NCBI GenBank assembly: GCA_002633005.1
Contig: NMRA01000100.1
Location: 945,787-1,009,786, forward strand
Length of the DNA: 64,000 nucleotides
Source of the DNA: Phoronis australis
Lineage: Eukaryota > Animalia > Phoronida
Direction: 5' to 3'
Below the pieces are notes generated by a model, which was given only the letters and a program-made list of their open reading frames with translations, did not search any database and was not told the DNA's origin. Shown here in pieces: positions 3,874 to 15,800 of this stretch (position 1 is the stretch's first letter; every line of letters begins with the position of its first letter). The translations under genes and the position numbers were made by a program.

Positions 3874-6800
3874 GTTCGTTATTCGCCACCAGGGGGGTAT
3901 CATTTAATCAAAGGTTGTCATTTGTAGCAAAAATTATTGTCTTTGATTTTTACAGGCACAAACTTAATTGAAGCGGTTTATGGTTATAGTCCATGTGTGT
4001 GAAGTCTGATTATGGAACAGTTGACATCAGTTCCCATGTTTTGATCTTACAGCATCACGTTTTTATTTATGTGCCTATGACTGTCTTTTGTTCTCTTTTC
4101 CTGGTAAATTTAGGTATTGAACTTGATGTTCAGTGAGTCTACACTCAACTGAAAGTGAAAACGGTCATTCAAATCAGTATTGTATGTGTGGCGCAGTGCT
4201 CACATTCGTTATTTATAATGAAATATTTTGAAGTAAAATGTTTTGTCCACTATCTCGCAGTATTAAAAGTAATGTTACGTTTTCTTTTTTCTAGAAATTG
4301 TTGATGGAAATGTGAAAATGACTCTTGGTATGATCTGGACCATTATCTTAAGGTTTGCCATTCAAGACATCTCAGTTGAAGGTAAAAGCTCAGATCCACT
4401 GTTGAGCACTGTTTTAATTTTATCTCTTTCTTTCAAAAGATGATTCTGAAATGTGATTTTTCAAATTGTTATAGTACTAAAGATGTTTCACTTCGCAACA
4501 TCTCACTTGATTTCTTCTATTCATATTCTTATCATAGCAATTTGTCTAGTTTCAATAAGATTGTCTGCTTTTCTCGTCGTTACAACTTTGCACATTTCAT
4601 TATGCAAGACACTTGTGACAAATTTCGACTTACGGAACGGAAACAGTGAAAATTATCCCATAATTTAACATTCCAATTTGTCCGACCAATCTCTTCGACC
4701 AATCTCATTTAATTAGTGCATGGGAGTAAGGCTTACTTTTGAAACATTCACCTTTCACTCGAATCGTGTTGTGTGATTTTGCACACTTTTGCCAAAGTCT
4801 AAAAAAACATTCTGTGGAACGCACCCCTGGTTCAGCTGAAAGTCGTTCAAAAGTGCATACTCTCACATGAGGTCTAGAGGCCTCAGTCTTGTTGGTTCAT
4901 GTGTGTGTCCTCTCTTTACTGACTTACCACTGTCAGGTGGATAGAATTGGGATGAAAATTCACCTTTATTATCGTATAAATTGTCCATTAGTCAGCTTTA
5001 CGCAAAAGAGTTGCTAGCGTCTGATCTACCACCACATTGTAGCCGTCCAGACTTACCAAGTTTTAACATTGTTCTCTTTGTTGCTGGGAGCACAAGCTGG
5101 TTTTTGCTTAATTCATGTGTTGGCTTGGTACGATATATGAACCCCAATACAGCAGCATGCAGTTTGAAAAAAAAGTGGATAGATTAAAGAAACAAAAATT
5201 CATGTTGACAGCTTCAATGTATATAACAGTCACTTGTTGCTTTTGCGTCGTTTCAATGTTAATTAGAGTAGGATTTGCCGGATTGCACCTATGGGAGAGA
5301 TTTTTTGTGTGTGTGCGCCTAGTAGACGGTATTTTGTGTACTGCACCGTCTGTTGGTGTATTGTGGAACTAACTCTGTTGCAGAGCTGACCGCCAAGGAG
5401 GGCTTACTACTGTGGTGCCAACGTAAGACGGCGCCATACAAGAACGTTAATGTACAAAACTTCCATATAAGGTAACACGGTCTCATGTCGACTGAGGTGG
5501 TGTGGCCTACTAATGTCTTTGTAGTCGCTTCTTAACGTCTACGTGCACTGCATGTTGGTCGCTACGGCGACTGTCTCCTTTCACTTTGTGTCTGTTTTGC
5601 TACCGTTTTGTTTTACAGAGCTGTCCGCTAAGGAGGGACTTCTCTTATGGTGCCAACGTAAAACACAACCTTATCGGAATGTTAACGTTAATAATTTCCA
5701 CTTGAGGTAATACACTAACCAATAAGGTAATACTGGGGGGAGGGGGTTGGGGGTGTTAGGGGGAGTGGCTATTGGGGAANAGTGAGTCTACACTCAACTG
5801 AAAGTGAAAACGGTCATTCAAATCAGTATTGTATGTGTGGCGCAGTGCTCACATTCGTTATTTATAATTAAATATTTTGAAGTAAAATGTTTTGTCCATC
5901 ATCTCGCAGTATTAAAAGTAATTTACATTTTCTTTTTTCTAGAAATTGTTGATGGAAATGTGAAAATGACTCTTGGTATGATCTGGACCATTATCTTAAG
6001 GTTTGCCATTCAAGACATCTCAGTTGAAGGTAAAAGCTCAGATCCACTGTTGAGCATTGTTTTAATTTCGTCTCTTTCTTTCAAAAGATGATTCTGAAAT
6101 GTGAGTTTTCAAGTTATTCTAGTACTAAAGATGTTTCACTTCGCAACATCTCACTTGATTTCTTCTGTTCATATTCTTATCATAGCAGTTTGTCTAGTTT
6201 TAATAAGATTGTCTGCTGTTCTCGTTGTTACAACTTTGCACATTTCATTATGCAAGACACTTGTGACAAATTTCGACTTACGGAACGGAAACAGTGAAAC
6301 TTTTCTCATAATTTAACATTCCAATTTGTCCGACCAATCTCTTTGGCCAATCTCGTTGGTGGCGGCCATTTTATTAGTGCATGGGAGTAAGGCTTACTCA
6401 TTAAACACTCACCTTTCACTCGAATCATGTTGTGTGATCTTACACACTTTTGCCAAAGTCTAAAAAAAAACATTCTGTGGAACGCACCCCTGGTTCAGCT
6501 GAAAGTCGTTCAAAAGTGCATAATCTCACATGAGGTCTAGAGGCCTCAGTCTTGTTGGTTCACGTGTGTGTCCTCTCTGTACTGACTTACCATTGTCAGG
6601 TGGATAGAATTGGGATGAAAATTCACCTTTATTATCGTATAAATTGTCCATTAGTCAGCTTTACACAAAAGAGTTGCTAGCGTCTGGTCTACCACCACAT
6701 TATAGCCCTCCAGACTTACCAAGTTTTAACATTGTTCTCTTTGTTGCTGGGAGCACAAGCTGGTTTTTGCTTAATTCATGTGTTGGCTTGGTACGATATA

Positions 6801-12800: not shown

Positions 12801-15800
12801 TTTATATATGCAGTGATTTTAAAATTTGTATATATTCTGGCCAAAAACAAAATGTTTTTTTCCTTTGTTGAAGTGAATTTCTTGTAAGCTAGGGTGCATT
12901 TGTAACAGTTATTTAGATTGTGAATGGACGAGTCTTCAAATAAGAAACAGTGCTAGAACTTCAAAACGTTTCCCAAAACTTTCATTGTTTGATGTTCTGC
13001 ATGTCTCAGTCATTTCGTTCTTACAGTGAATTTCCAAAAATAGGCCCATGGGCGGATATTTGGAAAACGACCTTTCAAATACGTCACATAAAACCGGAAA
13101 TTCACCAAGACATATACTAGGAAACTTTGGGCATACTTTTGGAAAGCCCGCGTGTGTACTTTGGGGTGGGCGTGTTTTTGGAAATTCCTGGTAATAGAAA
13201 TGACTGAATGCATAGTTGGACATGCCGAAACTTGTTGGAAAGTTTGCTGCATTATGGATGGCTTAAATCTTAAACTGCGTATGCTGTTTGGCTTTTAGAA
13301 GTCTAGTTAGCAAATAGCTGTTTTTAGAAGTACTCTCATGGTATTTGTTACGTTAGTTTTAGTATTTTAAGTTTCTTGTTTCATAACAGTGGTTTTGTTA
13401 AGTGATAACGGTTGTGTAAATAAATTGTAGGATAATCCTTTGGAAAACCTGAATACAGCATTCAACGTTGCTGAGAAGCATCTGGATATTCCGAAGATGT
13501 TGGATCCCCAGGGTAACGTTCTTGTTTCTCTCTTTCTAACTGTCCTTGACCCAATTGTAGGATAACCCCTGGGAGAACTTGAACACGGCTTTCGACGTGG
13601 CTGAGAAACACTTGGATATTCCCAAGATGTTGGACCCCGAGGGTAACTGAGCATGTCTAGTGTGCATGCCACGTGGGGGCACCAGTGCTGGTGATGAAAG
13701 CTCCCACACAGGGTGCTACTAATTGCATGGAGTGCACTGTTGGTATTACCTAGTTTGCGGTCTATGCAAATGAGTATGAAATGACTTCACCGTGAACTGT
13801 TTGGGTATGCAAATGGAGTTTGCAACAACTATTGGTTTTATCTTCTGCATCTGTGGCATTCATTGAGTAGTTCACATTAGAGGGAAGGTATGACATTTCG
13901 TTTCAGATTAAATTATCATTTTTGGCAAGAAAAATGGTTTTCTGAGATCAGCCCCAGTGTGTGGTCAAAACTGCAGCGGCCACACTCCAACGCTTCGCGT
14001 GCACAACTAAACCCCTCTCCATTAGTGGCAGAGTATTTTAAGCGTATTTAAGCGGTGATGTCACCTGTCTAGATTTCAGGAATTGCTGGTGAGAATTGGG
14101 GATTGGTAATAAAATCACATTGGATTTGTTGTTTTATAGCTTAGACATCTAATAAACTCAAGAAGTCTATCCCATCCAAAAACGATTTCAAAAAATTTTT
14201 TCGGTCTTTTAACTGACTATGTCCCTTGAATCCGCTAAAGTTTGCAAGGAAGTTTTTAATCTTCAAGATTTAGTTCTGTATCCCTTAGCTACCAAAAGAG
14301 CTCATCCATGACTTTGTGTAGTTTCAATAAACTTATTTCAATGTCCTTCACTCACCGCATGTGAATTAACTTTTAATCTCCTTTCGGTCGCTGTTAACTG
14401 AACTAATGTCTGTATCTTCTTGTTCCAGTTAAACTCAAATTGCTTAAGTCGTTTTTATGAAAGTTGATGGAGAAACTAATCAAAATTGGGCAATGATGCA
14501 TGTTAAGGAAAGTCATGTTATCTGCTCACTGCTTCCCTTTCTGTACTTATATATTACTATTGTTATTATTGGGATCGTTTGATTCAGCTGTTCAATTAAT
14601 TATAACACTAGCATGGAATGGCAGTCCTCTGCTGTTTTGTGGAAAATATTTCTATGAGCATTTTCGAATTAATGTTTTGTAGCTGTCATATTCATCTTAA
14701 TTTTCAAGTTTGCCTTAGCTGAATGTCCGTAAGACGTGTTAGCTGCAATTTATTGTACACGTGTGATAAGTGTACAGCTTTTGCTGAATTGACAACGTCG
14801 ATAATTCTGTACTGCCATGACGTACTATCGCAATGAAATATACCCAGAAGCAGCTCAACGTCACTTAAACAAATTTTAGAACTAACAAACATACACGTGC
14901 ACAGAATTGAGCAAAAGTGAACGCGTACGAAAAAAAGTAAAGATGGCTGGCGAACTGTCTTTATCCTTATTCCTCTACTTTGAGTCATGTTCCTACAGTA
15001 TAAGTGTAAAGTATTCGGACGAAGTGACCCGAAATTCTTCGCCATAACGGCTGGGCAGAATTCCAAATCATGGTCAGAGTATTCTTCCTGATGACTGAGA
15101 ATGAAGAAGAATTAACTATAAAGTTAGCAAGGTGGCTCCGCCAGTCTGCAATAAGAATTTTACCCCTGTAATACGTATTTCCAACCATTTTTGTTGGTCT
15201 CGAAATTAGCCGTCATGATGGGTGAACAGTATTATGTCTGATTACTTTCGTCTCGTATTGTATATACAGTTCTGGTCATCTGCTCTGTAGTATCTCTTGC
15301 TTTCAATTCGGCTCTTTACTTTATTTGGTGTTCACTTTTTTCCTTTTCTTATTCAGGAAGTAGGGGCACAACATTCATTTCAGACGGTTTTTGTCTTCTA
15401 ACTGGGCTGAAACTATAGAGATAGTATTGAACAAGTTAGATTATGTGTACTAAAAGGAGTGATAGTATCTTCATTAATCAATTGGTGAGGCATAGCAAGT
15501 GGCTGAGGAACAAGTAAGTAAAATAATGGAAGGTGACAATGTCCATCAACAAATATATTAGCATTGTGCGAGTAAGAATTAGACAAGAAATCAATAGAAT
15601 ATAACAAAGCGGCTATTAGTTATGGCGTGCTCTGTAAGCGTCATCATCATCTGACATGATCAAATGTACAAATAACTTGGACATAATCTGTCGACAGACA
15701 TGGTCAACTCGGCCAAGCCTGATGAACGGTCGGTAATGACGTACGTGTCTGCCTACTACCACGCCTTCTCTGGAGCTCAGAAGGCGGAGATGGCTGCCCA

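Follow-up and report, generated by a model that had tools for sequence, protein, structure and literature searches.

Three tandem pairs of alternative exons in the CH2 domain of a phoronid alpha-actinin gene

Most invertebrates have a single alpha-actinin gene serving both muscle and non-muscle cells, and splicing of the actin-binding head is therefore the main route to specialised forms. The exon 8 switch is described as ancient and is shared by chordates, arthropods and nematodes (PMC4494069, PMC8373072, PMC9741552). Exons 8a and 8b of ACTN2 and ACTN4, of Drosophila Actn and of C. elegans atn-1 are described as tandem exons of the CH2 domain, of a length not divisible by three, with one used per pair (PMC4494069, PMC8373072). 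Here we analyse the alpha-actinin gene in a stretch of 64,000 nucleotides (nt) from Phoronis australis (contig NMRA01000100.1, positions 945,787 to 1,009,786; hereafter the window), in which exons 5, 6 and 7 each occur twice in tandem. All six of these exons are real, used and mutually exclusive in RNA. The triple behaves as the either-or exons already known from alpha-actinin do, at three different exons: exon 8 is single here and fused to exon 9, and switching takes place at the three exons that precede it.

The control of such exons has been described in part. QKI controls the choice between ACTN2 exons 8a and 8b, and ACTN2 transcripts that skip both trigger decay (PMC7782589). In alpha-tropomyosin exons 2/3, the nonmuscle and smooth muscle (NM/SM) exons of alpha-actinin and OGDH exons 4a/4b, exclusion is enforced by the branch point (PMC7969005), with a steric threshold at about 50 nt from the upstream donor (PMC7969005, PMC5740500). 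EF-hand alternative splicing is described as chordate-derived, in a paper that names only Drosophila actin-binding-domain splicing and exon 19 (PMC4550062). A full-text literature search found no description of an exon 5, 6 or 7 pair in an invertebrate alpha-actinin, and the passages it returned name exons 8 and 19 only. A survey by Lek et al. in 2010, which the search did not cover, reportedly examined alpha-actinin in invertebrate genomes; its abstract is said to describe prevalent duplications of actin-binding-domain exons, and it may list some of the pairs. Other muscle genes are known to carry cassettes of several pairs. The present gene adds, with RNA behind them, three further alpha-actinin switches side by side without the exon 8 switch.

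Three exon pairs in the CH2 domain

The gene is a single open frame on the plus strand (3639..41443), running from exon 2/3 to the stop codon. Its 18 exons encode 856 amino acids ending in GESDL, and all AG and GT splice sites along the frame are present; tblastn found no exon 1 within the 64-kilobase window. We number the exons by vertebrate usage, in which exons 2 and 3 correspond to one fused exon here, as do exons 8 and 9. The protein is closest to alpha-actinins (81.5% identical to that of Lingula) and has the CH1-CH2 head, four spectrin repeats and EF hands of the family, the Pfam architecture having been checked on a relative. Our tree has 31 rows after 15 redundant ones were dropped and holds no invertebrate deuterostomes or cnidarians, so that its placement is approximate. 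It puts the gene outside molluscs, arthropods, vertebrates and the Capitella/Lumbricus group and among Lingula, Owenia, Watersipora and Tubulanus, in an order that it does not resolve. By sequence the gene looks lophotrochozoan.

The exons of the switch region are as follows.

4295..4381, plus strand: exon 4, constitutive, end of CH1 (tblastn and junction reads); haplotype-type copy at 5943-6029
5384..5471, plus strand: exon 5a, 88 nt, CH2 helix A and phosphatidylinositol 4,5-bisphosphate (PIP2) loop, K at the ACTN2 R169 position (sequence and RNA junctions)
5619..5706, plus strand: exon 5b, 88 nt; relative to 5a, T>S, A>Q, K>R, Q>N and I>L (sequence and RNA junctions)
10766..10844, plus strand: exon 6a, 79 nt, the R-ending type common to molluscs, Owenia and Lingula (sequence and RNA junctions)
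11247..11325, plus strand: exon 6b, 79 nt, the K-ending type; relative to 6a, E>D, K>S, T>S and R>K (sequence and RNA junctions)
13431..13512, plus strand: exon 7a, 82 nt (112 junction reads from exon 6, 182 to exon 8)
13561..13642, plus strand: exon 7b, 82 nt; relative to 7a, L>W, N>D and Q>E (66 junction reads from exon 6, 96 to exon 8)
15698..15876, plus strand: fused exon 8/9, single (tblastn and junction reads)

An earlier note on this DNA had placed six intact exons here, and the sequence confirms them: phase and length are equal within each pair, and all six have an AG acceptor and a GT donor. The note's statement that they rebuild most of CH2 also holds. By PDB matches, exons 5-7 encode the start and middle of the domain, 81 of its 106 Pfam residues as mapped on a relative. 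Partners are identical at 62 of 88 nt (pair 5), 61 of 79 nt (pair 6) and 66 of 82 nt (pair 7). They differ by five, four and three amino acids, 12 in total over 81 codons and mostly conservative; the four to five changes per pair claimed earlier fit pairs 5 and 6, and pair 7 has fewer. None of the eight one-per-pair combinations contains a stop codon. Using both members of a single pair, or neither, brings an early stop in every case, within or just after CH2, in line with the frame shift that the note predicted. The frame is kept when exons 5, 6 and 7 are all skipped.

No second exon 8 was found by tblastn or in junction reads, so the gene lacks the exon 8a/8b switch. The EF-hand exons are present in one copy each by tblastn, the only search applied to them, and no duplicate corresponding to the chordate 19a/19b switch was found.

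Synonymous sites are near saturation. Over all pairs the proportion of differing synonymous sites (pS) is 0.79, against 0.096 for nonsynonymous sites (pN); for pairs 5, 6 and 7, pS is 0.92, 0.61 and 0.85 and pN is 0.14, 0.11 and 0.05 (Fisher P = 2e-9, 8e-5 and 1e-10). All three duplications are therefore old and constrained, as had been proposed. For pairs 6 and 7, self-BLAST matches reach no further than about 8 nt from the exon edges, which shows their introns to be unrelated; pair 5 gave no self-BLAST match of at least 60 nt at E<1e-8.

The window also holds several N-flanked duplications of 93-97% identity, which the earlier note rightly set apart from the pairs, where a and b are 70-80% identical. 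One correction is needed, in that exons 4, 5a and 5b themselves recur in such a duplication.

5781..7442, plus strand: haplotype-type assembly copy of 4132-5779, 96.7% identity, bounded by N at 5780
5180..5779, plus strand: 600-nt invariant block around 5a/5b, with 0 events between the haplotype-type copies against 37 in the 798 nt upstream

The copy repeats exon 4, 5a (7047-7134) and 5b (7282-7369). Both copies thus hold the whole of pair 5, and the one at 5781-7442 is most likely not a real second cassette. The invariant block suggests constrained regulatory sequence, though it may be a local assembly effect. Just 3' of 5b lies a long G-rich run (5723-5779) that ends at the assembly N and does not differ between the haplotype-type copies; it is a possible hnRNP H/F or G-quadruplex element.

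One exon per pair in RNA

We used three raw-read runs (X1-X3) and one contig set (X4) carrying the same species label, mapped on the second copy of the region; exon 5a junctions were counted on the identical copy at 7047-7134. The analysis covered about 18-19% of each raw run, and a joint was listed only if it had at least three reads at two starts. The complete table has 13 joints. Twelve of them, with 809 junction reads, are the 12 allowed one-per-pair junction types, and the thirteenth (12575/12723) is on the opposite strand inside an intron. Reads in X1/X2/X3 were:

Exon 4 to 5a, 43/49/39 (131 in total); exon 4 to 5b, 18/11/0 (29 in total)
5a to 6a, 38/22/29 (89 in total); 5a to 6b, 23/27/20 (70 in total)
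5b to 6a, 2/3/0; 5b to 6b, 16/13/0
6a to 7a, 13/21/2; 6a to 7b, 14/16/16
6b to 7a, 37/22/17; 6b to 7b, 4/6/10
7a to exon 8, 62/77/43; 7b to exon 8, 26/33/37

No joint from 5a to 5b, 6a to 6b or 7a to 7b, and no skipping joint, is listed for X1-X3 at the threshold of three reads. Neither a member without reads nor routine a-to-b joining, the two signs that the earlier note had named against its proposal, is seen. Adjacency, equal length and phase, splicing to shared flanking exons, the lack of any listed joint inclusion and purifying selection together identify the pairs as mutually exclusive homologous exons.

Pooled use is about 18% for 5b, 46-49% for 6a and 63-65% for 7a, and the two sides of each exon agree; 159 reads lead from 5a into exon 6 and 34 from 5b. 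Exon 5b is missing from run X3 (0 of 39 and 0 of 49 reads), and use of 5a and 5b varies among samples (exon 4 to exon 5 junctions, P=9e-4). Among the joints listed for X4 there are only 5a and 7b, in contigs, which cannot show absence. The four exonic read variants that we checked are all synonymous, and the 40 variant rows listed of 96 include no read difference at the 7b Trp codon. An apparent C>A at 7044 was considered as RNA editing and rejected, being exon 4 sequence misplaced at the junction.

Exon choice is partly coupled, 5b with 6b and 6b with 7a, and does not follow two fixed programs. The ratio of 6b to 6a is 29:5 after 5b and 70:89 after 5a (odds ratio 6.6, P=1.2e-4 stratified by run; P=1.7e-3 for distinct read starts). 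The ratio of 7a to 7b is 76:20 after 6b and 36:46 after 6a (odds ratio 0.165, P=5.8e-7 stratified by run; P=3e-5 for distinct read starts). Short reads cannot phase all three pairs. Nevertheless, X3 has all four exon 6 to exon 7 junctions on 5a alone (one of them with 2 reads only), so that 5a must occur in at least four isoforms. Because 5b joins both 6a and 6b elsewhere, we infer at least six of the eight isoforms. The output is likely six to eight versions of the actin-binding head from one gene. The earlier note had foreseen up to eight variants or two coordinated ones; the combinatorial alternative agrees with the reads, and the coordinated one is not supported, as all exon 5 to 6 and exon 6 to 7 junctions occur.

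Relatives and the variant residues

One pair is already widely annotated (6), one is annotated in a bryozoan (5) and one appears new (7). We surveyed protein models of 32 named spiralian species that have several models, or one model joining both copies. The models are automatic and show the isoforms of each species only in part, so absence from them is weak evidence. The exon 6 pair is found in public models of 26 of the 32 species, which include molluscs, an annelid, a brachiopod and a bryozoan (for example Owenia CAH1791427.1/CAH1791425.1, Lingula XP_013386575.1/XP_013386577.1, Haliotis, Octopus, Crassostrea, Mercenaria, Biomphalaria and others). These pairs match the one here in position, length, R-ending and K-ending types and, where visible, order. 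In the four single models listed that join both copies (Nucella, Tegillarca, Mactra and Elysia crispata) the R-ending copy comes first. It does so here as well, upstream of the K-ending copy at the same position, as expected of the lophotrochozoan exon 6 pair. The second residue of 6a is F here and in Owenia, in contrast to the usual W in relatives.

The exon 5 pair is found in one of the 32 species, the bryozoan Watersipora. Isoforms X1-X3 of Watersipora subatra (XP_067939162.1-164.1) show pairs at exon 5 and at exon 6; the 5a peptide is identical to 5a here, and 5b has the same S and Q. Watersipora differs in having D where 5b here has R, and no exon 7 pair in its three models. The exon 7 pair is found in none of the 32 species in the public models examined, and the species with an exon 6 pair, bar Watersipora, show no exon 5 pair there either. 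The earlier note knew of no described triple; among models the triple and the exon 7 pair are unseen elsewhere, and pairs at exons 5 and 6 are already present. A metagenome scan returned mostly spliced transcripts and no genomic cassettes. A Tubulanus exon 5 'pair' was dropped, being a whole-domain repeat within the model. We propose that pair 6 arose in an early lophotrochozoan, that pair 5 would date at least to the split from bryozoans or have arisen independently, and that pair 7 probably arose only in this lineage.

Other differences among these models touch the same gene. Paralvinella and Owenia (P0349, P0002) have an identical 5b-like exon 5 peptide, and Capitella and Lumbricus are 5a-like; annelids may have an unannotated exon 5 pair. 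Owenia models P0002 and P0121 differ over the first EF-hand exon (columns 747-798), an apparent second either-or pair, unlike the window, which has one copy of that exon. Mercenaria isoforms P0215, P0270, P0269 and P0288 differ over one rod exon of the 77-nt type (columns 364-386), again an apparent either-or pair. Optional rod inserts of 14, 17, 6 and 6 residues occur at the same position in Owenia (P0002/P0123), Lingula (P0077/P0125), Haliotis (P0284/P0283) and Gigantopelta (P0252/P0250); in the matching rod intron here (30788-34655) no optional micro-exon candidate passed a simple filter.

Residues are numbered as in ACTN2 by alignment to chain 7ank_A. The 5a/5b changes fall at positions 152, 166, 169, 174 and 178, four of the five inside the PIP2 loop. 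The PIP2 site is described as residues 165-181, with a platform of R163, R169 and R192, and the first CH2 helix as an actin-binding site (PMC4259493). Position 169 is K in 5a and R in 5b; likewise it is K in ACTN4 and R in ACTN3. Among 508 fetched proteins there were 348 matches at the position of the 7b Trp, and 0 of them have Trp there. We propose that the variant heads would likely fine-tune actin or PIP2 binding by cell type, which is the job ascribed to the exon 8 pair, absent here, in chordates and arthropods. The gene offers a natural set of CH2 variants, few in number, in which the residues that tune actin and PIP2 binding could be sought. It is also a compact example on which to examine whether adjacent either-or exons are selected jointly.

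Intron signals, alternative readings and remaining features

The introns between partners carry the following signals.

5472..5618, plus strand: intron between 5a and 5b, 147 nt; CTAAT resembling a branch point, its A at +42; AG-free zone of 92 nt before 5b; TGCATG at 5549
10845..11246, plus strand: 6a-6b intron, 402 nt; ACTAAC with A at +42 and a pyrimidine tract; TGCATG at 10957
13513..13560, plus strand: 7a-7b intron, 48 nt (the shortest other intron of the gene has 147 nt); CTAAC with branch-point-like A at +27

The predicted branch points of pairs 5 and 7, 42 and 27 nt from the upstream donor, lie under the steric threshold, as in the branch-point-enforced pairs of other genes. Those here are predicted, and pair 5 has a long AG-free zone whereas pair 6 has none; motif and AG-free zone would suit steric exclusion in pairs 5 and 7 but not in pair 6. 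In the 6a-6b intron 11 AGs follow the +42 motif before the acceptor, and an ordinary branch-point-like CTGAC lies nearer, 58 nt before 6b; because of this we read the +42 element as a putative QKI/SF1-type site or decoy. In the 5a-5b (5509-5514) and 6a-6b (10882-10887) introns alike, the A of ACTAAY stands exactly at +42. This common spacing may be chance or a shared spacing rule.

TGCATG is the RBFOX motif and ACTAAY the QKI motif. Downstream of the alternative exons TGCATG occurs five times in 1195 nt, where 0.5 would be expected (P=1.6e-4), and the 3750 nt that follow 15 constitutive exons do not contain it; 3' of exon 7b, GCATG/TGCATG stands at 13651, 13663 and 13724. ACTAAY occurs four times downstream of alternative exons against 0.8 expected (P=0.008), and YGCY showed no excess in the same windows. 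Six scans for Dscam-type docking and selector sequences, each with 15 shuffles and made on the DNA of a single species, gave nothing that stood out (1 to 14 shuffles reached the observed energy). Donor hairpins gave no signal (z-scores -1.4 to +0.1). The 6a-6b intron folds only about 1.5 standard deviations better than crude shuffles, and the fold leaves the first AG unpaired.

We propose that in pairs 5 and 7 exclusion would be imposed by predicted branch points too near the upstream donor, with nonsense-mediated decay as a back-up, and that in pair 6 it is probably imposed by regulated repression plus decay. Cell-type splicing factors like RBFOX and QKI/How would likely decide between a and b, and such control would explain the partial 5b-6b and 6b-7a coupling.

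Overall, we think it probable that three CH2 exons were tandem-duplicated and are spliced one per pair, giving what are likely six to eight actin-binding heads, likely tuned by cell type. A number of points weigh against this. The protein changes are small, and both their putative functional effect and the branch points are predictions from sequence. By the scanning rule, steric blocking fails for the 6a-6b intron. The motif test covered five motifs in three windows each, picked after the sequence had been seen. Runs X1-X3 carry no tissue labels, and nonsense-mediated decay of frameshifted RNA would conceal a-to-b joins below the listing threshold. Coupling is not significant in X2 alone (P=0.08 and 0.11), and in bulk RNA it is obtainable from mixtures of cell types without molecular coupling. 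At the PIP2 position both K and R are seen in single-exon invertebrate genes, and Watersipora 5b carries D rather than R; a sponge, acoels, rotifers, a leech and spiders have the S and Q of 5b as well, in genes with a single exon 5. The two 5b copies are therefore only putative homologues, with a putative shared function.

Three other explanations were considered. We give almost no credence to the pairs being pseudo-exons or an assembly artefact of stitched haplotypes or paralogs, even though the window has several N-flanked haplotype duplications and one of them holds exons 5a and 5b. Both haplotype copies contain 5a as well as 5b, and the divergence of a from b, with saturated synonymous sites and unrelated introns, is far from that of haplotype copies. 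The splicing of every one of the six exons to the same shared flanking exons already refutes an artefact. It is quite improbable that two or three tight cell-type programs (such as 5b-6b-7a against 5a-6a-7b) account for the output, with the other combinations as leakage. The two associations, with odds ratios near 6, and the X4 contigs, with the limit given above, point that way. However, 5a joins 6a and 6b in major amounts (89 and 70 reads), 6a joins 7a and 7b almost equally (36 and 46), and X3 makes all four exon 6 to 7 junctions on 5a alone.

An explanation that we hold unlikely, although more plausible than tight programs, is that the exons are real alternatives of nearly equivalent function, kept as tolerated redundancy or for RNA-level tuning through decay. 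The 12 mostly conservative substitutions are compatible with it, as are the free variation of K/R at the PIP2 position and of A/Q/S three residues earlier among single-exon genes, and the making of all pairwise exon combinations. Against it stand the exon 6 a/b signature kept over four phyla and 26 species, the 7b Trp unmatched among the proteins compared, the sample-dependent use of exon 5 and the unusually invariant intron around pair 5. Cell-type tuning of the heads remains the reading that we prefer. A bolder extension of it is possible but doubtful: every CH2 exon would be a recurrent site of either-or duplication, the exon 8 switch would have been lost and a partly coupled code of three switches would make cell-type-specific heads, with 5b recreating the Lys-to-Arg difference in the PIP2 platform between ACTN4 and ACTN2/3 and the exon 5 pair inherited together with bryozoans. 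If this is true, splicing here does what gene duplication did in vertebrates.

Elsewhere in the window, an open frame on the minus strand (55852-56229) with a CxxC motif and no Pfam match looks like an exon of a neighbouring gene. Near-identical duplications (90-100%), mostly beside single Ns, lie at 20162-22081, 32958-34478, 34477-38883, 43779-44171 and 59361-60174; they repeat exon 13 and exons 16-18 and look like uncollapsed haplotypes. Introns and the downstream region also contain repeats (29251-29803, 22584-22800 and 51267-52451), namely a tandem array of 78-nt units that has a partial copy in inverted orientation, and further dispersed repeats.

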